A stretch of 64,000 bases of DNA from Candidatus Omnitrophota bacterium (GTDB lineage Bacteria > Omnitrophota > Gorgyraeia > Gygaellales > Profunditerraquicolaceae), in NCBI GenBank assembly GCA_022710715.1, contig JAKLGJ010000001.1, positions 42,041 through 106,040 on the forward strand. Reading direction: 5' to 3'. Under the pieces are notes generated by a model. The model was not told the DNA's origin, ran no database searches, and was given only the letters and a program-made list of their open reading frames with translations. Within the stretch, counting starts at the first letter, position 1. Each line of letters begins with the position of its first letter. This document shows positions 22,855-53,022 of the stretch, one piece after another. Made by a program: the position numbers and the translations under genes.

Positions 22855-22951
22855 AAGCGCAACAAATAGATAGGAAGTTGAGGCTCCAAATAACCTTTGG
22901 GAAGTAAGTTTGCAACTCTTTCGTGGATGCCCTTGAAAAGGGGATATTTCT

Positions 22952-23086
22952 ATGGTATACTTGCTTCTGACAAATAGGTATTTGGGAAACCGAAATGGCA
23001 AACTCAGGGTGACCTGGGGACGCAAAGTCATGCATCCGCCCGATTGTAGAAGCGGACCGGCAGACTGCCGTAGTTCCTCACGTTAA
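22952..23086 (+). CDS. Hypothetical 44-aa small protein (MVYLLLTNRYLGNRNGKLRVTWGRKVMHPPDCRSGPADCRSSSR)
   Basis: Strong SD AAAAGGGGA 6-7 nt upstream of ATG 22952; stop at 23084-23086, immediately followed by the terminator hairpin. Lies between the promoter at 22826 and the terminator at 23088. Confidence 0.3.
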   Translation: MVYLLLTNRYLGNRNGKLRVTWGRKVMHPPDCRSGPADCRSSSR

Positions 23087-23087
23087 T

Positions 23088-23118
23088 CTCGGGTGTTGTT
23101 TGCCTGAGATTTTTTTTT
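23088..23118 (+). terminator. Rho-independent terminator
   Basis: CUCGGGU-guuguuu-GCCUGAG stem-loop (7 bp with G-U pairs) followed by AUUUUUUUUU. Confidence 0.55.
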
Positions 23119-23128
23119 GACTGGCGCA

Positions 23129-23173
23129 AAAGTGCCAGGCACATAAGGGTTAAGAACATGAAAGTGCCAGGCA
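23129..23173 (+). repeat. Two direct copies of AAAGTGCCAGGCA (13 bp) spaced 32 bp start-to-start
   Basis: Exact copies at 23129-23141 and 23161-23173, between the terminator and the ATG at 23205. Confidence 0.45.
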
Positions 23174-23204
23174 GAAGCCAAAAAAACACCTAGAAAACGA
23201 GAAA

Positions 23205-24401
23205 ATGCCGAGATTACCCAGAATACATATTGAAGGCGCGCTGTACTTCATTACCAGCAGGGGCGAGATCAACGAATCTATCTTCAAGGACGAAGGAGAT
23301 TATAAGATGTTTCTGGAGCTGATGAAAAGATACCAGGAGCAGTTTGGAGTGAAGATCTTCGCCTTTTGCCTGATGCCGGATCATTTTCATATTCTGGTGG
23401 AAATCGAAAAGTCGATCAAAGAGGATCAATCCTCCGCTCAAAAAACCCAGGAAATGTCGGATTTTATGCAATCATTGAATAACAATTATACCAAATATTA
23501 CAATGGCCGCTATAACCTCAAAGGCCATCTCTTCCGCGAACGCTACAAATCCGCGATTATTCAGAAAGAGAATAATCTTTTGAAAATGACCGCTTATCTG
23601 CATTTAAATCCGGAAAAGCTTGCCTTGGCGGAAGACGCCAAAGATTATCCTTACAGCAGCTATCAGCTTTACCTATATAATGACCCGGTCAAACAGGCGG
23701 ATCTGCAGTTCCTGCGGGATGCGGTGAATGAGGCTTTGAGTTTTCTGGGTAATCAGAGTTACGGCGAGTTTGTGCGCGGCCTGGACCCGGAAGAAGGGGC
23801 TTCCATTCACAAGCGGCTTAATCGCGGCGGGATCCTGGGATCGGAAGAATTCGTAGCCATGGTCAAATCCGAAGTGGAAGCATACCAGGCCGGCGGACTG
23901 GGCCAGAAACTGGAAATCAATGCCAAGAATTATTATAAATTGTTCTTTGTCCTGGGCAGCGTGGTTTTTGTGCTGGTGGCTACCCTGGGCGGGTTATATT
24001 TCGTTTCCCTGCGCAAGAAAGTGCAGACGCTCTCCAAAACCGAAGCGGCCGCGAAGGCTACCAATCATCAGCTCGATGCTTTGAATTCATCGGAATGGCA
24101 GGTAAAGATCATCGGCGGCCCCCAGAAACCCGAGGATGCGGATATCCTGACTTTTATCAACGGTAAATTTGTTTCCGCCAGGATGAATTCCCTGGGGTAT
24201 CCGGGGTCGAATTATTCCATCGCGGTGCAGGAAGACAATAAGGTGGTCTGGGAAACCATGCAAAGTTCCGCCAGCGGTATTGTTTCCTGGCACGGTGAAC
24301 TGGAACAGGACAAAATGACCGGAGTGATCAGCCTGCGGGAAAACGGGAAAGACCCGCAGGATTTTTCATTTGTGAGCATTGCCCACAGGAGGAAGAAATG
24401 A
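23205..24401 (+). CDS. RAYT/IS200-like HUH-Y1 (TnpA_REP-like) domain fused to a TM helix and an about 150-aa C-terminal extracytoplasmic domain
   Basis: N-terminal 150 aa carry GALYFITSR ... MPDHFHILVE (HUH) ... AYLHLNPEKL (catalytic-Tyr helix), alignable to E. coli RayT (LPEHMHCIW / DYIYINPVKHG). Then a TM segment LFFVLGSVVFVLVATLGGLYFVSL and a C-terminal domain of unknown function. Confidence 0.7.
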   Translation: MPRLPRIHIEGALYFITSRGEINESIFKDEGDYKMFLELMKRYQEQFGVKIFAFCLMPDHFHILVEIEKSIKEDQSSAQKTQEMSDFMQSLNNNYTKYYNGRYNLKGHLFRERYKSAIIQKENNLLKMTAYLHLNPEKLALAEDAKDYPYSSYQLYLYNDPVKQADLQFLRDAVNEALSFLGNQSYGEFVRGLDPEEGASIHKRLNRGGILGSEEFVAMVKSEVEAYQAGGLGQKLEINAKNYYKLFFVLGSVVFVLVATLGGLYFVSLRKKVQTLSKTEAAAKATNHQLDALNSSEWQVKIIGGPQKPEDADILTFINGKFVSARMNSLGYPGSNYSIAVQEDNKVVWETMQSSASGIVSWHGELEQDKMTGVISLRENGKDPQDFSFVSIAHRRKK

Positions 24402-24886
24402 GCGCAAGAACCGCTATTACCGCCGCGATTGCATGTATGACTTTATCATTCATCTGCAGCCAGCCTGTCCCGGCGCAGGAAGCGCCGCAGGCCGAGCAGC
24501 CGCAGGTGCAGGTTGCGATAAAACAGGTTTCCGGCGTTATCAGCGGTTTATCTTCCGGTTTCATCGCTATCGAGCTGGGCGGGGGCAGCGCTAAGGGCGC
24601 CCGTGAGTCGGCATTCAATCTGGACAAGAATGTCCGGATCGTGCATAAGAAAAGCCTGAAAGAACTTTCTGTCGGCGATACCGTTTCTCTGGATTACGAA
24701 GAAACGGTAACCAAGCAAGCGGACGGAAAGAAGATGCGAAAAACCCGCGTAATCGCGATTACATTCCTTAAAGCTGCGCCGCAAGGTTTGATTGCGCAGG
24801 AAGAGACCCAACCTCTTCAGAAAAGCGAGCCGAAAGCCGGCGAGCTTTCTCTGAAGGGAATTAAAGGGGAGGCCGGCAATGAATAA
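24398..24886 (+). CDS. Small secreted protein (signal peptide), unknown function
   Basis: ATGA overlap with the upstream gene. N-terminal MSARTAITAAIACMTLSFICSQPVPAQEA resembles a Sec signal peptide. Ends 8 nt inside the giant ORF start. Confidence 0.5.
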   Translation: MSARTAITAAIACMTLSFICSQPVPAQEAPQAEQPQVQVAIKQVSGVISGLSSGFIAIELGGGSAKGARESAFNLDKNVRIVHKKSLKELSVGDTVSLDYEETVTKQADGKKMRKTRVIAITFLKAAPQGLIAQEETQPLQKSEPKAGELSLKGIKGEAGNE

Positions 24887-27800
24887 AAAGACTATTATTT
24901 CGAGAACGAGCTTTGCGGCGATCGGTTTGGTTTTCGGTTTATTCTTGAGCCTGTTCTTCGCATTGCCGGAGGCCTCGGCGGTCCAGATCAAGAAGGTCCA
25001 GACCGGCGACGTCTATTTCGACACGGACGACATTTCCCAGACCGTGCCTATCCAGGCGGTGGACCAGACCAAGACGCTTATCCTGGTCTATCCCAATGTG
25101 GATTACAATACCAGCAACTACATCTATAATTCGCTGTTTACCGTGCAGTTCGAAGCGGATAACAGTATCGTGCTTAACCGCGACGGCGCCAACACCGGCG
25201 CGTATGTGCGTTATTATATCATTGAATTCACCGACGGCGTTTTCGTGCAGCGGGGGATCAGCTCTTTTATCTACGGCAACTATAATAACACCGCGTACCG
25301 GATCAAGGAAGTGATCCTACCGACTTCCATCGACCCGGAAAAGTCTTTTGCCGTGGTTAATACTCGTTTCAACTACACTTCAAGCGCCTATGATGAAATG
25401 ACCCTGGTCACCGGAGAAATATTCGATGAAGATACGATGATCCTGGAGAGGAGCTCTTCCTATGACGCCAACAGGACGGTGAACATCGTCTGGCAGGTGG
25501 TGGAATTCCAGACCGACGCGATCGTGCAGTCCGGCAACCTGACCATGCCCTGGAACGCAACGTCCGCCACGGTTTCGCTGACCGACGATCCCACCGATGG
25601 GACGTTCAGCAACCTGGACTATATTCCCGCGGGCAAAACCGACAAATGCTGGCTGTTCTATCAGACCCGCGCCCGAGCCAATATCAACGGCGTGGAAGGC
25701 CGCTACGCCATCCGCGGCGATATCAGCGCGGAAAACCAGTTGACCTTTACCCGGGCCCAGGGCGACGGTACGACGGTCAACGACGAAAACTATATCCGCT
25801 GGTATCTCATTCGTTTTACCGATGAAAGCACCAAAGTCCAGAAAGATTCAGTGACAGTCGCCGCAGCGAGCGATCTGGCCATGGAAACTATTCCTACGGC
25901 GGTCGATCCTTCGCGCGCTTTCCCGTTTATCGGGGTTTCCGGTCAGGCTAATACCACGGCCACGTATGAGGACGATATCAGGTTCCAGCCGGAATTCAAC
26001 GTAGCCAAAGGCGTGGCTTTTCAGCCTGACGGGACTACGCCGGCGATCTGGGTTGCCGGGTTCCATTCCAATAAAGTGTACAAGTTCAATGCGGATACCG
26101 GCGCGTATATCACTTCAGTCACCGTCGGCACCGAACCGGTGGCAGTCTGCTACGATTCCGAGAACGACGCCATCTGGGTGGCCAATTACGGCTCGAATAA
26201 CGTGACCAGGATCAATGCCGATAACGCCACGGTAGACGGCACGGTGGCAGTTGGTACCGGCCCTACGGATATCTGTTTCGAAACGATCACTAACTCCGTC
26301 TGGACCGCCAATTATGTTTCCGCCACGACCGGATCCGTGAGCAAAGTAGACGCTTCGGCGATGACTTTGACCAGCACCGGCACCGCCACCTACGGCCCCA
26401 CCAGCATCTGCTGGGACCAGAGTAATAATTATATATGGATCTGTTACTGGACAGGCACTAATACCGTCCAGCTGGGTTACTGGACCTGCGCGGATAATGA
26501 TTTGAGCAACGGCCTGACTGCCCGCGATATCGGCAACGGTTCTCAAGCCTATACCTGTATCCGCTACGCGCCCACCAACGGCATTGATGGACAGACTTAT
26601 AACAGTATCTGGGTGGCATCTTTGCGTTATAATTTCGTGATGAAGATCCGCTGCAATGCTCTGGGCACCTATTATCAGTATTATCCCGAACTGGCGCCCA
26701 GCGGCATGACCTGGGATCCTACTACCAACCGCATGTGGATTGCAAATTACGCGTCCAATAAGCTTACCAAGATGAAATCATCCGACGGTACGTCTGACGA
26801 AACCAACCCGGACACCGACACCAATCCTTTCTCGGTGTGCTACGCTGCGACCGCAACGCCGTATATCTGGGTTTCCAACGCTTCCGCCCGCACTCTGCAG
26901 AGATTCGATCCGACCGACAGTTCAAATGAAGGGACGTTCGCCATCAGCACCTCTGAAGATCAGCTGGCTCTCAAAAGAGCCAATACTGCCAATTCCAGCG
27001 ATATCAACTGGCAGGTCATCGAATTCGCGCCGATCACCGTGAAAAGCCCTAACGGCGGCGAAGTATGGCACGTGGGAGCGGATCCGGCGGATACCACCAT
27101 TACCTGGAAGCACGCGGATTCCCTGGCCGGATCGACCGTGGATATCCTGCTTTCTCAAAACGGAGGGACCACCTATCCGTTGACTATCACCACCGGAGTC
27201 AATGCTACCGCGGATGCGTTCGCCTGGACTATCGACAACGTCGAAGACGGCGCGAATCCTCTGCAGGACGACCTGCGGGTGAGGATCATCAAGACCGGCA
27301 CTACCACTACCGACCGGCAGTACGACGATTCCAACGGGAATTTCGAGATCAAAGGGACCATTGCGGTTACCCAGCCTAACGGCGGGCAGACCGATTGGTA
27401 CGTGGGGGATAAGGATAAGAAGATACAGTGGAGCAAGACCGGTGACTTCGATCCGGCCCACGATGCCGACTACAGTTTTAATATCTATCTTTCCGAGGAC
27501 GGAGGGGACAATTACAATTATACCGTAGTTACCGGCCTGCTTCAGGCGGATGTAGCCTGCGGCGTTGCGGACGATACCTGCGAGTGGACCTGGGATGAGA
27601 GCAATAACGGGATCCCGGACAAAATCGGCGCCGATCGTAAGATCAAGGTAGCCCTGAACGGGGAAGAATCTGCGGTCAATGACGTTTCGGACGCGGTTTT
27701 CTCCATTCGCGGCGTGGTTACCCTCACCGCGCCTAACGGCGGGCAGACCTGGCTGGCGACCGAATCCAACGATATCACCTGGACCAAGAAAGGTTCCATT

Positions 27801-30800
27801 GCGTCTTTTACCTTGAAATACTCTTTGAACAGCGGCGCGGATTATCTCGCGACTATCGACAGCAGCGTGGATGCGGCTACGTATTGTACCGGAGATACCT
27901 GCACCTATCCCTGGAATCCCACTCCAGAAGCGGCTATCGGCACTGCGGTGCGCATTAAAGTGATCAGCAATGAAGCGGTCGGTCTGCAGGTGGAAGATGC
28001 TTCGGACGCCAATCTCACCATCGCGGCTTCCGTGCAGCTGGATACGCCTACCGGCGTGGACGTCTGGACGGCTACCGAAGGAGCGGATATCACCTGGACC
28101 GTGCACGGCGTGATGGATTACGTGCATTTGTGGTGGTCGGCGGATAACGGGGTGAGCTGGACCCGGATCACCGGCGACGCGGGCACGGCTGCCGCAGCAG
28201 GCAGCTATCACTGGAACAGCGTGGCTGAAGGCCTGGTGGGCACTACCTGCAGGATCTGCGTTTCCAAGCGCAACGGTTCCGGAGAGACCGAGCCTTCGAC
28301 GGTCAAATCGGTTTCCGCGGCCTTTGTCTCGCGCGGCAAGCTGATTCTCTCGAGTTTCGACGGCGGCGAAATGTTCCTGGCCGGCTCCGCCCAGAATATC
28401 ACCTGGGACGCCAAAGGCATCGGGCTGGGCAATGTGCGCATTTATTATGCGGCGGACGGATCGGATTTCAGCAGCCTGCTGACGGATTCCACGCCTGCTT
28501 CCGATGAAACCTTCCCCTGGCCGGCGCTGCCTTTGACCACGACCAATACCGGCAAAGTCAAGATCGAGCTGTTCAACGAACCTCTGGTTAACGACACTTC
28601 GGCCGGCGCCTTCATTATCGGGACCCTGGTCATTACCACGCCGGACGGCGACGAAAGCTGGACCGTGGATGCCAGCGAAAATATCGTCTGGGATTCGGTG
28701 AAGTTCACCGGTAACGCGCACATCTATTACAGCGACGACGGCGGCACGGATAATTATCCGCATTCGATCACCACCGTTCCGGTCGCGCTTTCCGAAGAGA
28801 TCAAATCCTGGACCATTCCCGACGCCATCGGCACGAACCTGAAAGTCAAGATCGTTTCCGTGGATGCGCCGGCAGTGTTTGCGGTATCCCCGGGCACATT
28901 CGTCATCAAAGGCGGCTTCAATGTGAGCACGCCTGCGGGCACGGATAAATGGGAAGTGGGTACCCAGCATAACCTGGACTGGGTGACGCACGGCACGATC
29001 AATAACGTCGATCTGTACTGGAATACCAATAACGGCGCCTGGACCCAGTTCGGCAACGATCTTTCCAACGGTATCGGCTATGCCAACTGGACGGTTCCCG
29101 ACGCCATCGGGATCAACACCAAGATCAAGGTGACCAATGCCGACGGCACGGTTTCCGCGGAGTCCGCGGCGTTCACGGTCAAAGGTAAACTGCAGGTGAC
29201 CGCGCCGGTTTCCGGCGACGTCTGGTATAAAGGCGACACCAACCGGGTAGTTAGCTGGTTTGCCTGGGGCACGGTGACCAATGTCAAGATAGAGTACAAG
29301 ACTTCATTGGCCGGCGGGTATACCACGATCGTGGCCAATGATCCCAGTCATACTGCGGGCAATAACTCTTATACCTGGGCGGCAGGCGTGGCGGACGAGA
29401 AATCCGAAACGTGCTACATTCGTGTTTCCGATGCCAATAACGCCGAAGTGGAAGCGGTTTCCGATGCGTTCTCCATCCGGCCGAAGATCACGGTCAGCGC
29501 TCCGGTGGTCGGGACCGATTTCACCGTGGGTTCGGATAATGCCAATGCCGTGCAGTGGAGCATCAACGGCTCGACCAAAGTCAGCACGGTCAACGTGGTC
29601 TACAGCACTGCCGGCGCAGGCGGCCCGTTCGATAAGACCATCGCTTCCGGCGTCACTGCAGGCGACGGGCAATGTAACTGGGACGATGTCGGCGATTATA
29701 TCGGCAATAACGTGGTGGTGCGCGTGGTGGATACCGGCAACAGCAATGTCTGGGGCAATTCCGGCGTCCTGGGTATCAAAGGCAGCATCACCCTTTCCCA
29801 GCCGGTGGGCAGCGAAGACTGGAAAGTGGGAGAGACTACTCATAATATCGTCTGGGGCAAGACCGGAACCATCGGCACGGTGAAGATCTACGCGGATTAC
29901 GGCTCCGGATACGAAGCTGTCCCTGTGGGAACTGCGGATGCCGAAGCAGTCAGCCTCTGGAACTGGACTCCTATCCCGGACCATGTCTCCAATACGGTCA
30001 AAGTCAAGATCACCGACGGCGATAACGAGGCCAAGACCTTTATCGAATCCAACGTATTCCATATTGTCGGCGGTTTCACCATCTCTCAACCCGGAACCCT
30101 GTACGCCACCGATCCGTATACCATCAGCTGGACTGCTTCCGCTTCCGGTATTTCCAAGGTCAAAATAGATTTTTATAACGGCACCAGTTGGTCGCCCGTG
30201 GCTACCGACGTGAATAACGACGGCACCAACGGCGGTTCGTACGCCTGGACTGTGCCCGCGAACACCGATTCCACCGCCTGCAAGCTGCGCGTGACCTCTA
30301 CCACTCCGGATCAGCCGGCTTCCGCATCGGAAACCGCGGCGTTCACGGTCAAGGTGGGCAAGTTTACCGTTTCCCAGCCCAATACCCTGATCACCGGCGA
30401 TGCGTACACCGTTTCCTGGACCAGCGAGGCAGCCGGCGTTTCCAAGGTCAAGATCGAGTTCTATAACGGATCGGGCTGGTCGGATATCGCTACCAACCAG
30501 GATAATAGCGGCGTTGCCGGCGGTTCGTACGGGTGGACTGTGCCCGGGACCACCAATTCCGCGGCGTGTAAACTCCGGGTTACCGCCACTACACCCGCTC
30601 AAGCCGGGTCCGCTTCCGAAACCAACGCGTTCTGGGTGCACGGCAAGATCGAATTCACCGGCGTGACCACTCCTTCTCCGACTGTGGGAGAGATGTGGAC
30701 CGTGGGTCAGAGCGAGGATATCAATTTCAAGATCACCGGAAAGATCGACAACGTGGATATTCTTTACTCCAAGACCGGCGGAGAGCCGTATTCCTATCCC

Positions 30801-42800: not shown

Positions 42801-45800
42801 ACGGACACGGCGGTTACCGATGTGTCCGACAACCCGTTCCGGGTGCGCGGCGCTTTGACCGTGACCGCTCCCAACGGCGGCGAAGCCTGGATCGTCGGTT
42901 CCAGTCACAGTATTACCTGGAACACCGGCGGTACCATCGCCAATGTCAAGGTCGAGTATTCTACCGACGCGGGGAGTTCCTGGACCATCATTGCCGCTTC
43001 CGCGCCGAATATCAACAGCTATGCCTGGACCGTTCCCGACGCCATTTCCAGCCAGTGCCGGGTCAGGGTATCGGATTTTACCGATTCCGACGCCAGTGAT
43101 ACTTCGAATGCCAACTTCAAGATCCGCGGCGATCTGGTCATTACCGCTCCCAACGGAGGAGAGAAATGGGCGGTCGGCACCACCAAGACCATCACCTGGA
43201 CCAGGACCGGCTCCATCTCCAACATGCGTCTGGAATATTCCGATAACGGCGGAACCACCTATGCTCCGATCGTGGCTTCCACTACCGGCAGCAACTATTC
43301 CTGGACCGTGCCTGACGCCATCACCATTCAGGCTCTGGTCAGGATCTATGATGTCAGCGACATGACGGTTACCGACGTTTCGGACGCGACGTTCAAGATC
43401 CAGGGTTCTTTCACCGTGACTTCTCCCAACGGCGGCGAAGCCTGGCAGGCGGCTACCGAGAACACGATCACCTGGACCTCCAACGGTTCGGTTAACTTCG
43501 TGCGCGTGGATTACTCCAAGGACAGCGGCGTTACCTGGAACGAGATCGTGGCGTCCACCGCTAACGACGGAGAGCAGACCTGGTTCATCCCGGTGGAGGC
43601 GGTTTCCGTGAATAACCGCATCCGCGTGGCCGACGCCGGAGACGTGGAAGCGTTCGATATGTCCAATAACGATTTCCGCGTGCGTTGTTCCTTCACCCTG
43701 ACCGCGCCTAACGGCGGCGAGAAGTGGAGGGTAGGACGAGCGTATAATATTGCCTGGACCAAGGTGGGTAACCCGGCGAACGTGAAGCTGGAATTCTCCC
43801 GCGATAACTTCGTCACCGATTTCAACACCATCGCGGCTGTGGCTTCCCCGGTCAGCCCGTATTCCTGGACTATCCCAGACTATATCCATCCCGGAGTGAA
43901 AGTGAGGATCTCCGACGCTGCCGATTACGGCGCCCGCGATGATTCGGATGCCGTGTTCGCTATTGTCGGCGACGTTACCGTGACCGCGCCCGTGGGCGGG
44001 GAACAGTGGATCGTCGATTCCCAGCAGACGATCACCTGGACCAGCGCCGGCTCGATCACCGACGTGAAGATCGAGTATTCCACTACCGGCGGCGCTTCCT
44101 ACAATCTGATCGAAGGCGTGCCGAACAGCCACTCGTATTTGTGGACCATCCCGGACACGATCAGCGCTTCCTGCAGGATACGCGTTTCCGATCTGACCTA
44201 TCCCGACGGCAACGGTGTATCCACCGCCAATTTCAAGATCAAAGCCGGGTTCACGTTGAGCGCGCCTAACGGCGGCGAGATCTGGACGGTCGGCGATGCG
44301 CATAACATCACCTGGACCAATATCGGTACGGTCAACAACGCGCGCCTGGATTATTCCACTGACGGCGGCACGACCTATCCCAGCGTGATCGCGGCATCCA
44401 CTGCCAACACCGGCACCTATGCCTGGACCGTTCCCGACGCTATTTCGACGCAGGTCAGGGTCAGGGTCGGCAGCGCTACGGACGTCGACGCGTATGACGT
44501 CTCCAACGCCAACTTCAAGATCCGCGGCGCTTTCCAGGTCACCGCTCCCAACGGCGGGGAACTCTGGCGGATCGCGCTGGATTATCCCATCCAGTGGAAT
44601 ACCATCGGCACCATAGCTAACGTGCGCATTCTCTATTCCACCGACGGCGGGACGACCTATCCGAATACCATCGTCAACTCGGTCGCCAACATCAACTCCT
44701 ACACCTGGCATTTACCTGACACCAGGACGCCTACAGCCAAAGTGCAGGTGGTCAATCCCGCGGATACCACGGTGCTCGATGAATCCGACGCCACGTTCCG
44801 TATTCAGGGATCATTGACCATGACCGCGCCCAACGGCGGAGAAGAGTGGATTTCCGGCGACGTGCACAATATCACCTGGAACTGGGGCGGCACGCTGCCT
44901 ACGGTGAAGCTGACCTATTCCATCAACAGCGGCGTCACCTATCCTTACACCATCAACGCGGCGGCGGCTAACGGCGCCGGCGGAGAAGGCGCGCATTCCT
45001 ACGCCTGGACCGTTCCGGATACCGTTGCCTCTACCTGCAGAGTGAAGATCGAGGATCCCGACGACTCGACCGTTGCCAGCGCTTCGGCGGCCGATTTCAA
45101 GATCCGCGGCGGCATCAGCATCACGTCGCCGGCAGGCGGGGAACGCTGGGTGACCAATGAAGTGCATAACATCACCTGGACGGATCGCGGCGAGATCCCC
45201 ACGGTCAAGATCCAGTATTCCAAGGATAACTTCGTTGCCGACGTGCATACCATAGCGGCTGCGGCGGAGAATACCAACAGCTACGCCTGGACCATTCCCG
45301 ATGACCGTTCCACCACGGTCAAGGTGCGCGTCACGGATACCCGCGACGATACTATCTCCGGCACTTCCGCCGGCAACGTGCATATCGACTACTACACCAT
45401 CACCTGGGTGCTCAAGGATCTGTTGACCAACGTCGGCCTGACCAACCTGGGCGTTACCGAAAAAGCCACCGGCACCGAGAACGTGCGCTGGTCGCAGACC
45501 GGATTGACTTCTCCGATCGTGACCCAGGCCCCGTACGGGTTCTGGACCACTACCTGGAGCGCTACCGGTTACGGCGACAAGGGCCAGAATTATACTGCGG
45601 ACAGCGATCAGAGCTTCGAGCTCTACATGGAAACGACCGCAGTGCATATCTGGCGCGCGGAAGCCCGTTTCAGCTGGAACGCGGATACCCGGGAACTCAA
45701 CGCTACTTCCTGGCTGGAAAGAGACGGTTCCATCGTTACCGGCGTCAAGAGCGTGCTTATCACCATCTACGATGAAGACGGCACGGTCATCACCACGATG

Positions 45801-47708
45801 AACGCTCCGACCACTTCCGCCGAAGGTTACTTCACCATGGTCTGGAAGGATACCACCAACAAGCTGCAAGCCGGCGTGGTTTACGCGGCGCTGGTCGATC
45901 TGATGAACTTGAGCGACGCGCATTTCAAGACGCCGACGTCCTTCTCGATCACCGAGACGGAGCGTTTGAAGAATACCGAAGAAGCGGTGAACAACATGGT
46001 CAATGTCACTTTGCCTTCGTTCCAGGCCACGGTACAGGGCACCTTGAATACGGGTCTGGCCGAGCAGAAGGATCTGATCGAGGAAAAGATGACCGAGCAG
46101 ACCGGTTTGCTCGTCGGTGACAAGACCAAAGCGGAGATCCTGGCGGCCGGCGGCATGGTAGGTATGGTGCAGCAGTCGCTGACCAGTTTCGAAAGCTCAT
46201 CCAATGAAGCCATACAGCGGCTGCAGTCCGGAGCCGATACGGCGGTCGAAGCAGGCCAGGAACTCGAAGCTACGGCCAAGAAGTATTCCTGGGATGCCTC
46301 TGCGGCTCCCAACCCGGCGCTTGCCGGAGACCGCGTTACGCTTTCCGTGCAGGGCCAGCCGGGCTGTCTGCCGATGTTGAGCGTATATACCTGGAACAAC
46401 AAGCCGGTCATGACCGATGTGATCCTGACCGAGTCGCGTCCGGGTTTCTACACCTATGAATTCAACGCCGATTCGCGGTTCGACGTAGGTAAGGCCTATA
46501 CCTATATCGTCAGCGAACAGTCGACCGGCGGTCTGGTATCCGGTTCGGCCATGGTCGAGTCCATGGGTATCTCCACGGTCGCCGGCCTTGCCGCGGCCGC
46601 TCCGGAAGCGGAACGCGCAGCCAAGAAGGCGCTGGACGCTATCCAGGCTGTAGAAGCGGTGCTGGTGTCCAAGGACAACATCAATATTGCCTCGACACTG
46701 CAGAGCCTGAAGTCGTCGGTGGATGAATTGCCGGCGCAGATAGCCAAGGAAGGGCCGAATACCCAGCTTACCGGCGCGGTCAACGATATCTCCGACAAGT
46801 TGAACAAGTTGCTCGGAGACGAAGGCGTTGATCTGGGCACGATGCTGGAGGAGAAACTGGGCGGTGAGTCGACGCTCAAAGAAATGCGCAATAAGACCGA
46901 TACCATCCAGGCAGTGGTAGACCTGCTGCTGCAGATCATGGAATCCAAGCTCGGCGGCGTGGATGAGCCGATCATCTCGGAATCCCTGCAGGCGGGGTCG
47001 GTGAAGTTCCGCATCGTCGTGGTCAACCCGTCGAAGATCAAGGTGCAGACGGTGAAGATCAAGAAGTATCTGCCTGAAGAAGTGCAGCTCAAGGATATCA
47101 TGGATGCCGGCGGATTGGACCTGGAGTACGATTCCGAGAAAGGCATCTATTACGCCTATAAGAACGATGTTGCGCTGCAACCCGGCGAATCCAGGGTGTT
47201 CGAGGTGGAAGTGGAAGACGTCTGGATCATTCCCGAAACCAAGATCACCGACCTGAAGAAGCAGGTGGAGAACGCCCTGCCGCGGTTCAAGAATACCGAA
47301 TTCGCCGCGCGCGTGGAAGAGATGGCCAGGACCGTTCCCGCGGTGCTCGAAGAGATGCTCAAGACCCAGCTGGACGAGACGGTCAGCCGCGAGCAGCATA
47401 TCGGCATCTATCGCCAGAACCTGCAGACGATCAAGCGGGTAACGGAGGAACTGGCGCGTCTGGATGCGATGATCAATCCGATGAAAGGCACTGCTACGCC
47501 GGAAGTGCTGGAGAAGAGCAAGTTCAAGATTAATCTCCCCGGCAAGAGCACCACCTGGTTGATCATTCTGGTGATCATCGTTTTTCTGGGATTGCTCGCC
47601 GGCGTGTTTTTCTTCGTCTGGCAGGCGCAGATGAAATCCGGCCAGGACGCGATCAAGGCTGCGGCCAAAGACGCGTTCCCCGGGCAGAAGCCTCCGGAAA
47701 AGAAATAA
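24879..47708 (+). CDS. Giant (7609 aa) cell-surface repeat protein: signal peptide, N-terminal modules, YVTN-type beta-propeller, about 70 tandem Ig-like (Kre9/KNH-like) repeats, coiled-coil region, C-terminal TM anchor
   Basis: SD GGGGAGG 8 nt before the ATG. Uninterrupted 22.8-kb ORF. The repeat consensus recurs every roughly 88 aa: TLTAPNGGExWxVGxxxxITWTxxGSIANVKLEYSTDGGxTYPxxIxASTDASTGSYxWTVPDAISTxCRVRISDxxDATVxDVSDANFKIKG. C-terminal TM LIILVIIVFLGLLAGVFFFVW, then a short tail. Confidence 0.85.
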   Translation: MNKKTIISRTSFAAIGLVFGLFLSLFFALPEASAVQIKKVQTGDVYFDTDDISQTVPIQAVDQTKTLILVYPNVDYNTSNYIYNSLFTVQFEADNSIVLNRDGANTGAYVRYYIIEFTDGVFVQRGISSFIYGNYNNTAYRIKEVILPTSIDPEKSFAVVNTRFNYTSSAYDEMTLVTGEIFDEDTMILERSSSYDANRTVNIVWQVVEFQTDAIVQSGNLTMPWNATSATVSLTDDPTDGTFSNLDYIPAGKTDKCWLFYQTRARANINGVEGRYAIRGDISAENQLTFTRAQGDGTTVNDENYIRWYLIRFTDESTKVQKDSVTVAAASDLAMETIPTAVDPSRAFPFIGVSGQANTTATYEDDIRFQPEFNVAKGVAFQPDGTTPAIWVAGFHSNKVYKFNADTGAYITSVTVGTEPVAVCYDSENDAIWVANYGSNNVTRINADNATVDGTVAVGTGPTDICFETITNSVWTANYVSATTGSVSKVDASAMTLTSTGTATYGPTSICWDQSNNYIWICYWTGTNTVQLGYWTCADNDLSNGLTARDIGNGSQAYTCIRYAPTNGIDGQTYNSIWVASLRYNFVMKIRCNALGTYYQYYPELAPSGMTWDPTTNRMWIANYASNKLTKMKSSDGTSDETNPDTDTNPFSVCYAATATPYIWVSNASARTLQRFDPTDSSNEGTFAISTSEDQLALKRANTANSSDINWQVIEFAPITVKSPNGGEVWHVGADPADTTITWKHADSLAGSTVDILLSQNGGTTYPLTITTGVNATADAFAWTIDNVEDGANPLQDDLRVRIIKTGTTTTDRQYDDSNGNFEIKGTIAVTQPNGGQTDWYVGDKDKKIQWSKTGDFDPAHDADYSFNIYLSEDGGDNYNYTVVTGLLQADVACGVADDTCEWTWDESNNGIPDKIGADRKIKVALNGEESAVNDVSDAVFSIRGVVTLTAPNGGQTWLATESNDITWTKKGSIASFTLKYSLNSGADYLATIDSSVDAATYCTGDTCTYPWNPTPEAAIGTAVRIKVISNEAVGLQVEDASDANLTIAASVQLDTPTGVDVWTATEGADITWTVHGVMDYVHLWWSADNGVSWTRITGDAGTAAAAGSYHWNSVAEGLVGTTCRICVSKRNGSGETEPSTVKSVSAAFVSRGKLILSSFDGGEMFLAGSAQNITWDAKGIGLGNVRIYYAADGSDFSSLLTDSTPASDETFPWPALPLTTTNTGKVKIELFNEPLVNDTSAGAFIIGTLVITTPDGDESWTVDASENIVWDSVKFTGNAHIYYSDDGGTDNYPHSITTVPVALSEEIKSWTIPDAIGTNLKVKIVSVDAPAVFAVSPGTFVIKGGFNVSTPAGTDKWEVGTQHNLDWVTHGTINNVDLYWNTNNGAWTQFGNDLSNGIGYANWTVPDAIGINTKIKVTNADGTVSAESAAFTVKGKLQVTAPVSGDVWYKGDTNRVVSWFAWGTVTNVKIEYKTSLAGGYTTIVANDPSHTAGNNSYTWAAGVADEKSETCYIRVSDANNAEVEAVSDAFSIRPKITVSAPVVGTDFTVGSDNANAVQWSINGSTKVSTVNVVYSTAGAGGPFDKTIASGVTAGDGQCNWDDVGDYIGNNVVVRVVDTGNSNVWGNSGVLGIKGSITLSQPVGSEDWKVGETTHNIVWGKTGTIGTVKIYADYGSGYEAVPVGTADAEAVSLWNWTPIPDHVSNTVKVKITDGDNEAKTFIESNVFHIVGGFTISQPGTLYATDPYTISWTASASGISKVKIDFYNGTSWSPVATDVNNDGTNGGSYAWTVPANTDSTACKLRVTSTTPDQPASASETAAFTVKVGKFTVSQPNTLITGDAYTVSWTSEAAGVSKVKIEFYNGSGWSDIATNQDNSGVAGGSYGWTVPGTTNSAACKLRVTATTPAQAGSASETNAFWVHGKIEFTGVTTPSPTVGEMWTVGQSEDINFKITGKIDNVDILYSKTGGEPYSYPVTSGLAVSSGENSHSWSIPTNQDILTKTQARIKIQDSLQTTVVAQSPLFGIKGTISVTAPVASDIFTYGGAPTNITWTYAGLIQNVKMSYSTNGLTYDFTINSGNAVAVTPSSFAWSIPDKILGDVVSVKVEDADNDQCYGVSGTFEIVGQLTLVAPVGGEKWSVGSTQNILWTPTGTFTTVRIEASADDFTSHMLDITRPAGATGVQQSYGWVIPSTLSNTMKVRVSDPDHHPETVKDVSDATFKILGSLDVTAPEAGQAWYKGETNKVISWDAFGTVTNVKIEYKTSGGGAYTTIVANDGSHTAGPNTYTWSAGVADENSETCYIRVSDATNYDDVYSVSAAPFSIRPVISVTHPLVGSNIAVAASYANAVKWSLNGSTKVSNVDIVYSTNGTAGPFDKTIATSVEAALGQKDWNIVSDTISGNVVVKVMDSTNNAAFGYSPVFNIVGQIAVQQPAAGVDWFVGATDKNITWTKQGTIGTVNIYADYNDAQGYQSIATGVDSATGLWNWPAIPDKVNNAVKVKVTDADNEAVVFGESAAFHIAATFAVTAPVNGNVWKIGESKSITWTCAGTAVSTVKLEYSTNGFVNETATVLIAAAAPNTLTYSWPIPDAITTSGKVRVSDPANSNANALSGGLFSIMGTLTVTSPNAGTESWDVGSTYPVTWTKTGSIPTIDVYYSHNNGTDWAKVNTVAINAALGTWNWAIDEATELTSGKSGLVRVMDTSYGTVYDDSNLPFELKGQVTVNTPSLNNISMLVGDAYNITWTKYGAVNNVQLHYSINGGIGGGGSYLAPNLIATVVSEPSSYSWTVPDAIGTNLRVRVRDAANANVWDESNNPFTIRGKVHVDYPNGGETFLVGETKQVKWTPTGTYSQVKLEYSTNAFADESQTVVVGTVGAGDTGEQQSYDWTVPDKISTSLKMRISDANDALVSDVSDATFTIKGALTLTSPTTGVTWIVGESQNITWTRNGSVALVKLEYSTDGGGNYTQTIAENVAGGSSPYPWTIPDAIDSDIRVRVSDMSDGTVKSESGDFTIKGKLTLTAPNGGEVLTVDDNFDITWTRAGSIANVKLEYSTNGFSSEAETVEIVASTNATGTPPASYKYTWAVPDAIDASVKVRISNAADPTVTDVSNNLFKIQGSFTLTAPNGAEKWSVGSGQSVTWTKHGSIVNAKLELSKNSGSSYPIIITNSTPAGGLSYSWTIPDQIATQCRVRISDADDATVLDASNADFVIMGTFTVTAPNGSEVWVVNTQQNIAWSVVGTVSNVKLSYSTDGGGTYPHVIIASTENSSPYNWTIPDAIYNTCRVRVADAANDDAFDISNGNFKIKGVLTVVSPNGTEVWPINSGHNITWSRVGSVANVKIEYSTNGFTDELQTYTIIASTPGVDLSYLWTVEDTPSSNCKVRITDVTDATVFDVSNAAFRITGNLTVTYPNGGEELIVNEVKNITWTKFGSIASVKVQYSTDGGSTYPVGKVIIASTSASNLSYSWTLPDDISSQCRVKISDVGDDSVADQSDANFTIKGSVTLTAPNGGQNWIVGANEDITWTRNGSFANVKLEYSIDNFTTPVVITASTNATGTPADTYKYTWSVADAISTNVKVRISDALNSSVSDVSDAAFTIKGALSLTSPTTAVTWLVGESRNITWTRTGSIANVKLEYSINGGGAYPNVIIASTPAGTGSYGWTVADAIGGDVRVRVSDALDATVKDESDVSFTIKGVLTLTAPNTSVSLVVDDPYTITWTRAGSISTVKLEYSTNAFADEAQVTVIAASTDATTGSYAWTVPDAIGTTLKVRVTNTADDTVKDVSDTTFSIIGSVLLTAPNGTEQWVVGDENNVTWTKHGSITAVKLELSKDGGTTWPVSITNSTPGGGLSYAWTIPDQISTQCRVRISDTSNVNVVDTSDANFAIRGGFTVTSPTTGSEVWVVAEVHDITWSSNGTISNVKLDYSTNGGTTYDYTIIASTPNTNSYSWTIPDAIAITCKVRVSDASNANAFDESNNNFKIKGALRVTSPNAGTESWSVGYSHPITWERTGQVQSINIYYSANAGGDWTKINGAVVDAALGTWSWDMSADTELSTTALIRIIDASDATVTDTSNNQFTVKGGLRVETPSAAGISLQVGNSYNITWSKFGNIAQVKIHYSTNGGDIGEGTYPDPANLIAIVDADELESLWAVPDRIGTNLRIRVMQSDNANVWDESDNAFEIKGKLQVLQPNGGEIWFVGDANDLQWRPYGTFTSQVKLEYSTNGFANEAATTLIATVPAGASEGTSTYSWTIPNAIGSGLKVRTTDANNATVTDVSDSTFTIKGKLLLQTPNGGETWVVGTVQNITWQTTGTIANVKLEYSINNGATYPNVIVASTDGSTGSYPWTIPSAIGTNLRVRISDVSDATVEDVSNATFTVKGALLLTAPNGAEAWQIGSTHNITWTRTGAIANVKLSLSIDGITYPTTIVATTDASTGSYAWLIPDNPGNTTKVKVEDVSDSTVFDISDANFKIIGSFTLTEPNGGEAFGIGTNRYVRWTKTGSIANAKIQYSTNGGANYDNTIIASTPAGGLEYEWTVADTPTTTARVKISDASDVTVFDTSDANFRIQGVFGVTAPNGSEVLTVGGTQTITWSCVGSVTNVKLQYSTNGGSTYDYTIADSIANSLEYSWTVPDSISTQVRVRVADVNDDTAADASNGNFKIKGAVLLTSPNGTENWIVGSSHDITWTRTGSVATVRLDYSKNGGSTYVDAITASVNGTGDPAGTYKYAWTIPDAIGTQLRVRIMDTSDSTVLDQSDANFNIKGALTVTSPNGGQNWIVSSAYPITWTRTGAIAAVKIDYSKNSGSTFPNPVVASTDASTGTYSWTIPDDLSTAVRVRVMDAADSSVFDASDADFAIGGAVTLNAPNGGQIWYVGAAQNVTWTRFGSIPQVKLEYSINGGFSYTNTIIAATDAAAQTYAWAVADAIGDQVRVRVTDTTNAAVTDESDANFTIKGILLLTSPNGAETWIVGEARNVVWSRTGSIANVKLEYSTDNGTTYPNTIVASTDASTGAYLWTVPDSIGANRKVKVSDVLDASVFDVSDAGFTVKGSVTVTAPNGGEAWGVGTQHAVTWTRTGSFLNVKIEYSTDGGVTYPSTIAASTDAAAGTYNWTIPDDISSGCKVRVSNVLDSTVADVSDTNFKIVGILNLTSPVGGERWIVATNHNITWTRSGTIANVKLEYSINGGGTYPNTIVASTPGGSLSFTWPVPDNITKTARVRISDVLDSTVLDTSDANFVISAGFTLSSPNGGEVLPVAGTHNIAWAPVGSATTVRLDYSTDGGSSYDKNISTSTANSGSFSWTVPDTVSAQCKVMVSDYNDIDAFDVSDANFKIRGDLVVTAPNGGEAWAVGTAYNITWTKAGSIANIKIEYSTDGGTTYPNLIVASTNASALTYSWTVPDTLSTNCRVRITDTGDAAVFDSSNASFKIRGAFTLTAPNGGEIWEVGTVQNVTWTMVGSIVNAKLEYSTDGGSSYVTTIVATTDASAMSYPWLIPNEITTQLRVRISDVSDASVYDASNANFKIKGVLRITAPNGGEDWDVGVSNNITWVTTGSVTSVRLDYSTDSGTTFPGVIVASTPAAAGTYAWTVPDAISVDVRVKITNLSDATVNDVSDADFKIKGRLTVTAPNGGEVWGVGSTETVGWSRIGSFSNVKIDYSVDSGGSFPNPIVASTPAAAGGYSWTIPDNIKTTVRVRVSDAADSTVFDISNADFKIRGNLLLTAPNGTEVWLISSSQAITWVRYGSISKVRLDYSKDGGSNYSFNICTSQDAGPQTYNWSIPDNPGTAVRVKITDEGDNTVYDSSNANFTIRGGFQILAPNGGEAWTVNSSHGIAWTTFGSYANVKIWYSKDNGSTWDIVNGNTLNSSPYVWTIPDAISTQCLVKIADVIDVDAVDTSDAAFIIRGQVNITSPNGGEAWGVGSSQTITWNKTGTIPSFKLEYSTNAFADESQTHLINGGIPGASVSYSWTVPDVIGTNLKIRVSDATDTAVTDVSDNPFRVRGALTVTAPNGGEAWIVGSSHSITWNTGGTIANVKVEYSTDAGSSWTIIAASAPNINSYAWTVPDAISSQCRVRVSDFTDSDASDTSNANFKIRGDLVITAPNGGEKWAVGTTKTITWTRTGSISNMRLEYSDNGGTTYAPIVASTTGSNYSWTVPDAITIQALVRIYDVSDMTVTDVSDATFKIQGSFTVTSPNGGEAWQAATENTITWTSNGSVNFVRVDYSKDSGVTWNEIVASTANDGEQTWFIPVEAVSVNNRIRVADAGDVEAFDMSNNDFRVRCSFTLTAPNGGEKWRVGRAYNIAWTKVGNPANVKLEFSRDNFVTDFNTIAAVASPVSPYSWTIPDYIHPGVKVRISDAADYGARDDSDAVFAIVGDVTVTAPVGGEQWIVDSQQTITWTSAGSITDVKIEYSTTGGASYNLIEGVPNSHSYLWTIPDTISASCRIRVSDLTYPDGNGVSTANFKIKAGFTLSAPNGGEIWTVGDAHNITWTNIGTVNNARLDYSTDGGTTYPSVIAASTANTGTYAWTVPDAISTQVRVRVGSATDVDAYDVSNANFKIRGAFQVTAPNGGELWRIALDYPIQWNTIGTIANVRILYSTDGGTTYPNTIVNSVANINSYTWHLPDTRTPTAKVQVVNPADTTVLDESDATFRIQGSLTMTAPNGGEEWISGDVHNITWNWGGTLPTVKLTYSINSGVTYPYTINAAAANGAGGEGAHSYAWTVPDTVASTCRVKIEDPDDSTVASASAADFKIRGGISITSPAGGERWVTNEVHNITWTDRGEIPTVKIQYSKDNFVADVHTIAAAAENTNSYAWTIPDDRSTTVKVRVTDTRDDTISGTSAGNVHIDYYTITWVLKDLLTNVGLTNLGVTEKATGTENVRWSQTGLTSPIVTQAPYGFWTTTWSATGYGDKGQNYTADSDQSFELYMETTAVHIWRAEARFSWNADTRELNATSWLERDGSIVTGVKSVLITIYDEDGTVITTMNAPTTSAEGYFTMVWKDTTNKLQAGVVYAALVDLMNLSDAHFKTPTSFSITETERLKNTEEAVNNMVNVTLPSFQATVQGTLNTGLAEQKDLIEEKMTEQTGLLVGDKTKAEILAAGGMVGMVQQSLTSFESSSNEAIQRLQSGADTAVEAGQELEATAKKYSWDASAAPNPALAGDRVTLSVQGQPGCLPMLSVYTWNNKPVMTDVILTESRPGFYTYEFNADSRFDVGKAYTYIVSEQSTGGLVSGSAMVESMGISTVAGLAAAAPEAERAAKKALDAIQAVEAVLVSKDNINIASTLQSLKSSVDELPAQIAKEGPNTQLTGAVNDISDKLNKLLGDEGVDLGTMLEEKLGGESTLKEMRNKTDTIQAVVDLLLQIMESKLGGVDEPIISESLQAGSVKFRIVVVNPSKIKVQTVKIKKYLPEEVQLKDIMDAGGLDLEYDSEKGIYYAYKNDVALQPGESRVFEVEVEDVWIIPETKITDLKKQVENALPRFKNTEFAARVEEMARTVPAVLEEMLKTQLDETVSREQHIGIYRQNLQTIKRVTEELARLDAMINPMKGTATPEVLEKSKFKINLPGKSTTWLIILVIIVFLGLLAGVFFFVWQAQMKSGQDAIKAAAKDAFPGQKPPEKK

Positions 47709-47887: not shown

Positions 47888-47944
47888 AACTCCAACTTAT
47901 TGTTTGTTATAGAGTTAGCAAATAAACCCGAGGATATCTCGACG

Positions 47945-48178
47945 ATGTTCGAAATAGTCATGATCAGCCCGGAAGAAATCCTCTACCAGGGTAAAGCCGA
48001 GAGCGCGATCTTTCCCGGAGAGTCGGGAGTTTTTGAGACGCTTTCCTATCATCGTCCGGTGGTCAGCCGTCTGGTGGGGGGGAGCGTGTTCATCGATAAC
48101 CGGGAATATCCCATCCGGCGGGGATTAATGGGTTTCAGTAATAATAAAGCCACCGTCATCGTGGAGAGAAACGCATAA
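47945..48178 (+). CDS. atpC: F-type ATP synthase epsilon subunit, beta-sandwich domain only
   Basis: MFEIVMISPEEILYQGKAESAIFPGESGVFETLSYHRPVVSRLVGGSVFI matches the AtpC N-domain. About 77 aa, with no C-terminal helical hairpin. The ORF-track TTG start at 47900 is rejected. Confidence 0.7.
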   Translation: MFEIVMISPEEILYQGKAESAIFPGESGVFETLSYHRPVVSRLVGGSVFIDNREYPIRRGLMGFSNNKATVIVERNA

Positions 48179-48396
48179 TGGATAAAAACCTGGCATTGCT
48201 CCTGATCTTTCTGGCGTGTATCGCGGTGCCTTCCTGGGTTTTCGCGCAGTGCGGTAAGTCGAGTATCGCGGCCCTGGGAAGAAATCCTTCGGCGGCGCCG
48301 AAGGTCTTTACCGCGATGATCTTTGTGATGGTTTTCGCCGAAGCCGCGGCGATCATTTCCATGCTGGTGGTGTTTCAGCTGTTTTCAGGGCAATAA
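48178..48396 (+). CDS. atpE: F-type ATP synthase c subunit (atypical helix 1)
   Basis: 72 aa, two TM helices. ALGRNPSAAPKVFTAMIFVMVFAEAAAIISMLVVF resembles the RQPE loop and helix 2 with the conserved carboxylate (E). Helix 1 lacks the GxGxGxG motif. Confidence 0.65.
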   Translation: MDKNLALLLIFLACIAVPSWVFAQCGKSSIAALGRNPSAAPKVFTAMIFVMVFAEAAAIISMLVVFQLFSGQ

Positions 48397-48488
48397 CAAC
48401 GTGAAACTATACACCTTGCGCAAATTGCACCTAACGCTAATAAGGAATTGCGTTAGTGTGCCCTGTGGTCAAATTGCGCAAGTGTTTC

Positions 48489-48509: not shown

Positions 48510-48524
48510 TCAAGGAGTTCTAAG

Positions 48525-51567: not shown

Positions 51568-53022
<1,455 letters not shown>

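Follow-up and report, generated by a model that had tools for sequence, protein, structure and literature searches.

Three overlapping genes in a 64-kb stretch of DNA from a “Candidatus Omnitrophota” bacterium (GenBank assembly GCA_022710715.1, contig JAKLGJ010000001.1, positions 42,041 to 106,040 of the forward strand; hereafter the window, on which all coordinates are numbered) encode a protein that joins a Y1 HUH domain to a transmembrane (TM) helix (HUH-TM), a small secreted protein, and a giant protein. Computational analysis of sequence and structure, the means of all tests reported here, shows that they belong to one predicted transcription unit, found Omnitrophota-wide, which comprises a promoter, a cyclic di-GMP (c-di-GMP)-I aptamer, a terminator, two phased boxes resembling repetitive extragenic palindromic (REP) sequences, and the three genes. 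The same comparisons show HUH-TM to be a domesticated REP-associated tyrosine transposase (RAYT) in which the helix-turn-helix (HTH) is replaced by what are predicted to be one TM helix and an extracytoplasmic barrel. We favor, at slightly less than an even chance, the interpretation that HUH-TM is a membrane-bound cis-regulator or tether acting on the leader boxes, with its barrel paired with the small OB-fold protein and with OFF control by c-di-GMP. A membrane-bound, cis-acting nucleic-acid-binding protein is the simplest model that uses all of the conserved parts.

The HUH-TM gene (23205 to 24401, + strand) encodes 398 amino acids (aa) comprising a Y1 HUH core, a TM helix, and a barrel. 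It is followed on the same strand by the gene for the small secreted protein (24398 to 24886; 162 aa, with a signal peptide, an OB fold, and a tail) and by the giant-protein gene (24879 to 47708; 7609 aa, with a signal peptide, repeats, and a C-terminal anchor). As read from the sequence, the HUH-TM stop overlaps the start of the small open reading frame (ORF) in the ATGA at 24398 to 24401, and the ATG of the giant gene lies inside the end of the small ORF, with an overlap of 8 nucleotides (nt) (24879 to 24886). A + strand scan found no terminator-like site between the three genes. The original prediction, made from the letters of the window alone, had described the trio with these coordinates and overlaps, all of which are present in the sequence, and had given the second protein a signal peptide, which is predicted here as a typical one. 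It also took such coupling to imply fixed stoichiometry, which overlapping codons do not by themselves entail, and it did not include the leader (22933 to 23174), where a riboswitch, a terminator, and two boxes provide the main clues to control of the trio.

Conservation was examined in 80 related loci from a scan that kept one genome per species, nearly all of them Omnitrophota, with 10-kb flanks and 1.24 Mb of DNA in total, of which leaders make up 11.3 kb. Giant ORFs mostly exceed the flank, with 1500 to 3200 aa in view. More than 300 homologs of HUH-TM exist; most of the 120 listed match over the full length (36 to 95% identity), and the named ones among the matches listed are nearly all labeled Omnitrophota. 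Of the 60 loci whose downstream DNA spans 3 kb or more, 57 have a very long + strand ORF that begins 0.05 to 3 kb after HUH-TM, and residues 1 to 1200 of the giant protein have tblastn matches in 62 of the 80 loci. In 55 loci an ORF of 125 to 276 aa with a signal peptide starts between −25 and +4 nt from the HUH stop, most commonly at −3 (the ATGA overlap) or +2, and the giant ORF usually starts within ~20 nt of the small-ORF stop. The genes keep their order and position as HUH-TM identity falls from 62% to 30%. Conservation of the order in relatives had been proposed as a check, and a complete lack of co-occurrence as grounds for rejection; homologs of the three genes co-occur commonly in Omnitrophota loci. 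Because gene order and overlaps recur across these loci, the trio is a real, conserved unit whose coupling is old and maintained, and it is far more general than could be told from the window alone.

The unit also varies. Two metagenome-assembled genomes (MAGs) hold the module twice (loci L001/L002 and L049/L064), and at L074 (7512 to 10930) the riboswitch and HUH-TM unit stands in two tandem copies, with several boxes on the opposite strand further upstream. In five loci (L017, L020, L022, L032, and L052) the OB protein is replaced by another small secreted family with an LPGN..VPI..ARVRS motif, and in four (L066, L070, L071, and L078) three ORFs of 179 to 196 and 289 aa precede the giant gene. 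An extra ORF of 760 to 805 aa lies between the HUH-TM and giant genes in L019, L023, L063, and L069; it comes after the small ORF where one is present, and L069 has no small ORF.

Within HUH-TM, the RAYT-like Y1 HUH core (∼aa 1 to 155, nt 23205 to 23669) is followed by a helical region up to the motif ILGSEEFV, by the sole hydrophobic helix of the protein, the TM helix (aa 246 to 268, nt 23940 to 24008), and by a C-terminal, putatively periplasmic 8-stranded beta-barrel (∼aa 296 to 398, nt 24090 to 24398), all encoded on the + strand. Residues 24 to 133 match Pfam Y1_Tnp (E value, 4e-12), the only domain found, and no HTH family matched residues 139 to 246. The sole PDB match of the HUH-TM profile is Escherichia coli TnpA_REP (4er8). 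The NCBIfam equivalog model REP_Tyr_transpos (NF047646) covers residues 5 to 151 only, at 76.6 bits against a cutoff of 80, which places HUH-TM just under the score of curated RAYTs. The HUH motif is HFH at 60 to 62 and the tyrosine motif is Y131-L-H-L-N-P; H60, H62, Y131, H133, and N135 are kept in 99 to 100 of 100 main-family sequences. A second subfamily has a charged coiled coil in place of the barrel, and giant ORFs still follow it. In four of its members (L074, L076, L077, and L079), N135 and at least one of the two HUH histidines are gone and Tyr131 is kept; the decayed motifs read EFIH, AFIH, KAVY, and AFVH. Because this degenerate branch keeps the TM helix and the link to the giant gene, catalysis is not strictly required.

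Source databases name HUH-TM homologs “transposase,” and a preprint of 2026 (10.64898/2026.06.07.730766) lists transposases in giant-gene flanks, which could suggest an ordinary IS200-like insertion that adjoins a large gene by chance. This explanation is refuted, and we give it practically no weight: more than 300 homologs are conserved over their full length, including the TM helix and the extra domain, synteny is fixed across the 80 species, and the HUH gene overlaps the next gene. TnpA proteins of IS200/IS605 are short and core-only, with a Y-x-x-x-Q motif, and their elements have subterminal hairpins, near-identical copies, and often tnpB, whereas the 398-aa HUH-TM has extra domains and Y-L-H-L-N-P, and its homologs are 30 to 62% identical in the same context. 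The HUH-TM unit is thus not a mobile element, as it has no tnpB and no element ends and its synteny holds from 62% to 30% identity. In the window, nothing convincing was found in the way of REP-like or insertion sequence-end inverted repeats around the HUH gene.

The leader opens with a sigma-70-type promoter (22933 to 22961, + strand; TTGAAA, a 17-nt spacer, TATACT, and a TG extended −10), which matches the consensus at 10 of 12 positions plus the TG. It lies ∼26 to 30 nt upstream of the aptamer in the window and in most related loci, where the promoters have a TGnTATACT −10 and a TTGACA or TTGAAA −35 element, at the same distance from the aptamer in most. The aptamer (22987 to 23072, + strand) matches the Rfam c-di-GMP-I (GEMM-I) family RF01051 at 54.9 bits, compared with a gathering threshold of 35 (E value, 5.6e-8), and of 17 loci tested with Rfam, 15 have such an aptamer just ahead of the HUH gene (38 to 66 bits). 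A covariance model, R1, found it in ∼71 of the 77 loci with upstream DNA and in 26 of 29 metagenomic HUH loci, but in none of the other box-bearing metagenomic loci; R1 was built from related aptamers on an RNAalifold structure that differs from the true GEMM-I fold and therefore served as a detector only, checked against Rfam hits. GCAAAC and CGCAAA are invariant in 16 aligned copies. The window aptamer contains GACGCAAAG, in which GACGC is followed by the canonical A; the GGC variant has a G there, and its model has the consensus GACGCGAA and scores the window at 53.7 bits, under its gathering threshold of 59. By both its score and its ligand-contacting nucleotides, the leader aptamer belongs to the canonical c-di-GMP-I class and is predicted to bind c-di-GMP. 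One related aptamer (L037, 428 to 513) reaches 60.9 bits with the Rfam c-di-GMP-I-GGC model (threshold, 59) yet keeps the canonical GACGCAAAG.

An intrinsic terminator (23085 to 23120, + strand), the predicted expression platform of the riboswitch, consists of an 11-pair stem (23085 to 23111) and then T9. In most loci it lies 10 to 15 nt after the aptamer, often in the form AAUCUCAGG..GUUUGCCUGAGAUU. In the minimum-energy fold the aptamer and the terminator form side by side, and since they coexist, a bound aptamer cannot exclude the terminator, which disfavors the standard ON design. The loop and 3′ arm of the terminator contain GUUUGCC, the exact complement of the invariant GGCAAAC of the aptamer; TTTGCC occurs in 19 of 59 terminators, compared with 0.35 expected. 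Because the two structures can coexist and the terminator complements GGCAAAC, the riboswitch is, with moderate support, most likely an OFF switch: high c-di-GMP would terminate transcription, and the giant protein would be made at low c-di-GMP. The 5′ strand of the free aptamer would then act as the antiterminator. A terminator stem mimicking aptamer helix P1a was considered and ruled out, as it showed no covariation (L041, L050, and L037).

Downstream of the terminator, and ahead of the start codon, the leader carries a directional REP-like motif (palindromic core, GTGCC-A-GGCAC) in two copies: box 1 (23129 to 23142, + strand; AAAGTGCCAGGCAC) and, 32 nt after it and 31 nt before the start codon, box 2 (23161 to 23174, + strand; AAAGTGCCAGGCAG). 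They are the only copies in the 64-kb window, both 5′ and in direct orientation, with none 3′ of the HUH gene or operon. The 10-mer core is present in 62 of the 80 loci, nearly always on the + strand and shortly before the HUH start, and 106 of 125 matches to a 13-mer with at most one mismatch fall in leaders. Directionality is seen in the conserved 5′ AAA, with no TTT on the 3′ side. At least two boxes are found in 56 of 72 loci, and the last usually ends 9 to 15 nt before the ATG, beside an AAGG-like ribosome-binding site. The boxes are kept where HUH-TM proteins share only 30 to 60% identity and are mostly absent, in their canonical form, from the divergent coiled-coil subfamily (8 box-less loci). 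The spacings between box centers fall at 20 to 23, 30 to 33, 42 to 43, 51 to 53, 63 to 64, and 72 nt, with no values between, and fit a 10.5-nt period (R, 0.82 over 16 distinct values), which speaks for duplex DNA. Most box variants are C-to-T changes opposite a G (27, compared with 5 G-to-A), which preserve G-U or G-T pairing. Boxes 1 and 2 can pair, and the leader RNA folds somewhat better than shuffled controls (z, −2.5). No flank covariation extending the box helix was found, and an inverted second box giving a 14-bp stem is limited to the L035/L037/L075 group.

Two promoter-like roles for the boxes were rejected: read by eye against the consensus, neither strand has the −12 element of a sigma-54 promoter, and the 9 to 15 nt between the last box and the ATG leave no room for an internal promoter. 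The terminator stem (window, 23085 to 23111; also L037, L035, L033, and L075) is itself built from box halves, CCAGGCAC, a loop, and GTGCCTGG, and its 3′ arm contains a degenerate inverted box ∼32 nt before box 1 in 13 loci.

The boxes are not confined to the Omnitrophota. A metagenome scan for the double box recovered 93 loci, with an HUH-TM gene directly after the boxes in 29, while ∼56 are unrelated contigs (G+C, 0.34 to 0.71) with intergenic arrays beside ordinary housekeeping genes. These arrays are tandem or dispersed (25 boxes in 9.9 kb at L100 and 15 in 11.8 kb at L169), with tandem units of 19 to 21 nt at L087, L092, and L146 and a perfect 31-nt palindrome centered on the box at L133; L158 and L150 are further array loci of AAAGTGCCAGGCAC. 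Exact protein look-ups assigned array contigs to Acidaminococcaceae (two) and Caldatribacteriota (one). No double box matched in 2.9 million viral contigs, and the motif was not found in the relevant papers searched. The boxes are classed as REP-like because such dense intergenic arrays in unrelated bacteria behave as REP sequences do. A REP-like core common to distant phyla is unusual, and we found no description of one.

One box-bearing locus connects the boxes to RAYTs. L112 (3390 to 4590) encodes a 316-aa protein with a Y1_Tnp domain (E value, 3e-15) and a weak Bac_DnaA_C match (E value, 1e-4, below the Pfam cutoff). Two boxes lie upstream in its own orientation and three lie inverted downstream, a REPtron-like arrangement. 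This RAYT is 29% identical to residues 1 to 222 of HUH-TM (E value, 6e-26), and because the two are collinear up to ILG(S/D)EEFV, after which HUH-TM continues with its TM helix and barrel, we take HUH-TM for a RAYT of the L112-type lineage with a replaced HTH. The comparison shows the boxes as the putative REP-like partner sequence of that lineage. RAYTs (TnpA_REP) and REPtrons have been described, as has a TnpA_Y1 subclass with a DnaA_C-like HTH (Quentin 2018, PMC6006769; Nunvar 2010, PMC2817692; Bertels 2017, PMC5581495), and the L112 lineage corresponds to the HTH-bearing subclass of Quentin et al. The word “membrane” does not occur in that classification paper (PMC6006769).

HUH-TM shares with RAYTs the Y1 HUH core, the HUH motif, the Y-x-H-x-N-P motif, the serine motif YPYSSY, and a position beside short palindromic repeats that form REP-like arrays in other genomes, and neither behaves as a mobile element. 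Unlike RAYTs, it has a TM helix and a putative periplasmic barrel in place of the C-terminal HTH, and it is the first gene of a riboswitch-controlled operon and overlaps the next gene. Its boxes, unlike RAYT REPs, are 5′ only, directly oriented, phased, and not dispersed in related loci; inverted REPs on both sides of the gene, as in a REPtron, occur in full in L112 only.

This kinship raises the possibility that HUH-TM is an active single-stranded DNA endonuclease or ligase that cuts or joins at the boxes rather than a regulator that merely binds them, with possible uses in rearrangement, amplification, phase variation, movement of the giant cassette, or covalent self-attachment to the locus. 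The HUH histidines, Y131, H133, and N135 are almost invariant in the main family, the REP-like boxes are the RAYT substrate class, and the module is doubled in two MAGs (L001/L002 and L049/L064), with the riboswitch and HUH gene in tandem at L074. On the other hand, the four degenerate-HUH loci keep the TM helix and the giant-gene link, the window has no inverted box 3′ of the HUH gene or operon, and the boxes are not dispersed in related loci, where order and position stay stable as identity falls from 62 to 30%. Membrane anchoring is also hard to square with action at a replication fork. We consider an active nuclease unlikely, although not negligibly so.

Alternatively, the boxes might be bound by a transcription or antitermination factor encoded elsewhere, with HUH-TM unrelated to them. 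The 10.5-nt phasing is typical of duplex-binding regulators, and the DnaA_C-like HTH of L112-type relatives, which is absent from HUH-TM, could read duplex DNA. However, in related loci the boxes are nearly confined to HUH-TM leaders, they flank the related RAYT in L112, and box and HUH-TM type vary together, as in the 8 box-less loci of the coiled-coil subfamily. An outside factor with no connection to HUH-TM therefore seems very doubtful.

The small protein combines a typical signal peptide with an OB-fold core (aa 37 to 123, nt 24506 to 24766, + strand) in the predicted structure (predicted local distance difference test, ∼85 to 90) and a disordered tail that ends in LSLKGIKG-like residues; it matches no Pfam family. 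Word-indexed searches returned 3 and then 9 homologs. In profile searches of all loci, an OB protein followed 55 of the 61 HUH-TM genes of the barrel type and none of the 10 without a barrel, and the 1.24 Mb of related loci contained no other copy. Barrel and OB protein are therefore probably partners in the periplasm.

Members of the barrel family are mostly stand-alone proteins with signal peptides. These secreted proteins (representatives, P0147 to P0276) form a large, uncharacterized family of 1326 clusters at 50% identity with no Pfam model. In them, a signal peptide and a K/E-rich linker precede the 8-stranded barrel seen in HUH-TM, and the tail after it is of low complexity; most of the tails read end in a basic stretch and then W (GWFGR, GWLW, or WWQ). 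P0207 has three tandem barrels.

The pairing of barrel and OB protein would also fit HUH-TM and the OB protein being accessories to assembly or export of the giant protein (a platform, chaperone, or anchor), with the HUH domain a scaffold and the boxes independent REP-type RNA or DNA elements, e.g., mRNA stabilizers. Translational coupling of all three genes, the extracytoplasmic position and strict co-occurrence of barrel and OB protein, the abundance of stand-alone secreted barrel proteins, and the better-than-shuffled folding of the leader RNA are all in keeping with such a role. It leaves unexplained, however, why an intact HUH site stands beside two cognate boxes in more than 60 species, and coiled-coil HUH-TM proteins without barrel and OB protein stay linked to giant genes. 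We judge a purely accessory function to be improbable, if still worth serious consideration.

Regulation by a membrane-bound HUH-TM protein, the interpretation favored here, would involve several steps. HUH-TM would sit in the inner membrane with its HUH domain in the cytoplasm and its barrel in the periplasm, and the HUH domain would recognize both leader boxes of its own operon. Bound there, HUH-TM would control or tether expression of the giant gene by autoregulation, as a roadblock, or by helping transcription. The periplasmic barrel would work with the cotranslated OB protein, as ToxR does with ToxS, and the pair may relay envelope or giant-protein status to the DNA-bound domain, while the riboswitch would decide whether RNA polymerase reaches the boxes at all. 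The observations on which this scheme builds are the gene order and coupling, the riboswitch, the terminator, the boxes and their REP kinship, the folds, and the co-occurrence of the proteins. The original prediction had offered a domesticated HUH protein acting as a regulator or a nucleic-acid-binding membrane component as one option; this has become the best-supported reading because conserved REP-like boxes sit in the operon leader, but it is still a model.

Several points weigh against this interpretation. First, another protein could bind the boxes, or the boxes could act as RNA: the bias of 27 to 5 among box variants fits single-strand, G-U-tolerant pairing and is in some tension with recognition as duplex. 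Second, the Y1 HUH proteins of the RAYT and IS608 literature bind single-stranded hairpins and are not known to bind phased duplex sites. Third, a position downstream of both promoter and terminator is unusual for an activator site. Fourth, main-family members keep the catalytic residues almost without exception, which suggests that chemistry may still be in use. Fifth, the TM helix has basic residues at either end, so that the topology cannot be read from the positive-inside rule. Finally, the REPtron evidence comes from a single locus, L112, and the ON/OFF call is based on thermodynamic folding and on loci related by descent.

In a further variant, HUH-TM would be a membrane-anchored DNA handle: binding the boxes, or linked to them covalently through Tyr131, it would hold the 23-kb gene at the inner membrane and couple transcription, translation, and export of the 7609-aa protein, with the barrel and OB protein as a gate and c-di-GMP providing the timing. 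We regard this as a rather remote prospect.

Parts of the favored arrangement have counterparts in known systems. ToxR/ToxS, TcpP/TcpH, PsaE/PsaF, and CadC are bitopic membrane transcription regulators. As in ToxR/ToxS, a single TM helix in HUH-TM links a (predicted) nucleic-acid-binding domain in the cytoplasm to a periplasmic domain, and the gene directly downstream encodes a small periplasmic partner; as with ToxR-type proteins, directly repeated sites lie near surface-structure genes. This is an analogy only: HUH-TM has an HUH fold rather than an OmpR-type winged helix, its sites lie in a transcribed leader after a riboswitch, and the periplasmic parts of HUH-TM and the OB protein have no sequence or fold relation to the ToxR-type ones. 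In the Lap system of Pseudomonas, the giant adhesin LapA is accompanied by the inner-membrane c-di-GMP receptor LapD and the periplasmic LapG. The trio follows a similar logic, in which a giant protein at the surface goes with a bitopic one in the inner membrane and a small one in the periplasm, under c-di-GMP control. Among the trio and its neighbors, however, there is no GGDEF/EAL receptor, LapG-type protease, or type I secretion gene, and c-di-GMP would act on RNA and not on a protein receptor. Adhesin and pilus genes controlled by c-di-GMP riboswitches are known from, e.g., Vibrio cholerae and Clostridioides difficile. There too, a GEMM-I aptamer and terminator precede a surface-protein gene; in the Omnitrophota, a different phylum, the first gene is a RAYT derivative, two boxes stand between the platform and the start codon, and the cargo gene is 23 kb long.

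The giant protein begins with a cleavable-looking Sec signal peptide and ends in a TM anchor with a short basic tail, and only these two ends are hydrophobic. The region between them comprises an N-terminal module that is conserved, a beta-propeller of the YVTN type, Ig-like repeats numbering in the dozens, and a coiled-coil region. Its Pfam content is limited to Ig-like Kre9_KNH, Reelin-B-like, and YVTN propeller modules, with no SecA_DEAD, dockerin, or peptidase domain found by Pfam, and the propeller matches a Methanosarcina surface-layer protein (1l0q; E value, 3e-9). The Archaeovorin and Dockerin types of West-Roberts et al. 2023 (10.1101/2023.11.21.568195) exceed 30,000 aa, with SecA_DEAD-like domains and many TM helices or dockerin/thrombospondin repeats, and the window protein, with 7609 aa and two hydrophobic ends, falls into neither. 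It does resemble other Omnitrophota giants in its phylum, its great length, and nearby genes for type II secretion/type IV pilus-like and PilZ-domain proteins. Type II secretion-like loci are reported in both preprints on Omnitrophota giant genes (10.1101/2023.11.21.568195 and 10.64898/2026.06.07.730766), PilZ genes and sugar importers near giants in the former, and glycoside hydrolases and transposase-rich flanks, with a weak carbohydrate-import signal, in the latter.

Upstream of the operon are lipopolysaccharide/glycan genes encoding GT9, GT4, WbqC, PIG-L, DegT, and a radical SAM/SPASM protein, and between 20000 and 24000 the G+C content falls from ∼0.58 to 0.47 to 0.51 across the end of this cluster and the operon leader. 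Downstream of the giant gene are F-type ATPase genes and then a type II secretion/type IV pilus-like cluster. The F-type ATPase set (47900 to 53022) starts 190 nt after the giant gene, with no convincing terminator between them; a 92-aa epsilon-like ORF comes first, followed by a 262-aa protein with a C-terminal OSCP match only and then alpha, gamma, and beta. Next, at 53025 to 55759, are an MshEN-only protein and a GspE-type secretion ATPase with MshEN and a C-terminal PilZ domain, which are likely two further c-di-GMP receptors 5 kb past the giant gene.

The original prediction saw no obvious precedent for coupling an HUH protein to a giant surface protein, and the arrangement is indeed undescribed within the searchable literature, i.e., papers on Omnitrophota giant genes, RAYTs, and c-di-GMP riboswitches. 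The terms riboswitch, IS200, and Y1_Tnp are absent from both giant-gene preprints, and c-di-GMP is absent from 10.64898/2026.06.07.730766; a literature search combining riboswitch, Omnitrophota, and c-di-GMP returned papers on ComFB receptors only. The trio combines known kinds of system, namely, a RAYT that has been domesticated, a surface-protein operon under riboswitch control, and a proposed bitopic regulator whose partner is periplasmic, and it stands a realistic chance of working by a new mechanism.

Giant genes pose a current puzzle in the Omnitrophota, and their activation has so far gone unexplained. The unit described here points to previously undescribed control of giant genes: a phylum-wide control region is now concrete, with a promoter, riboswitch, terminator, and two boxes, and two dedicated accessory proteins are defined beside the giant gene. 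Both the leader and the accessory proteins can be tested in vitro without cultivating the organism. HUH-TM provides a rare example of a domesticated RAYT that serves its host, and the boxes provide a REP-like sequence that is common to distant phyla and whose regulatory position is fixed here. Should the HUH domain read the boxes from the membrane, HUH-TM would represent a new type of bitopic regulator; if it instead acts as a DNA handle, it would define a new functional class for HUH proteins and REP sequences.

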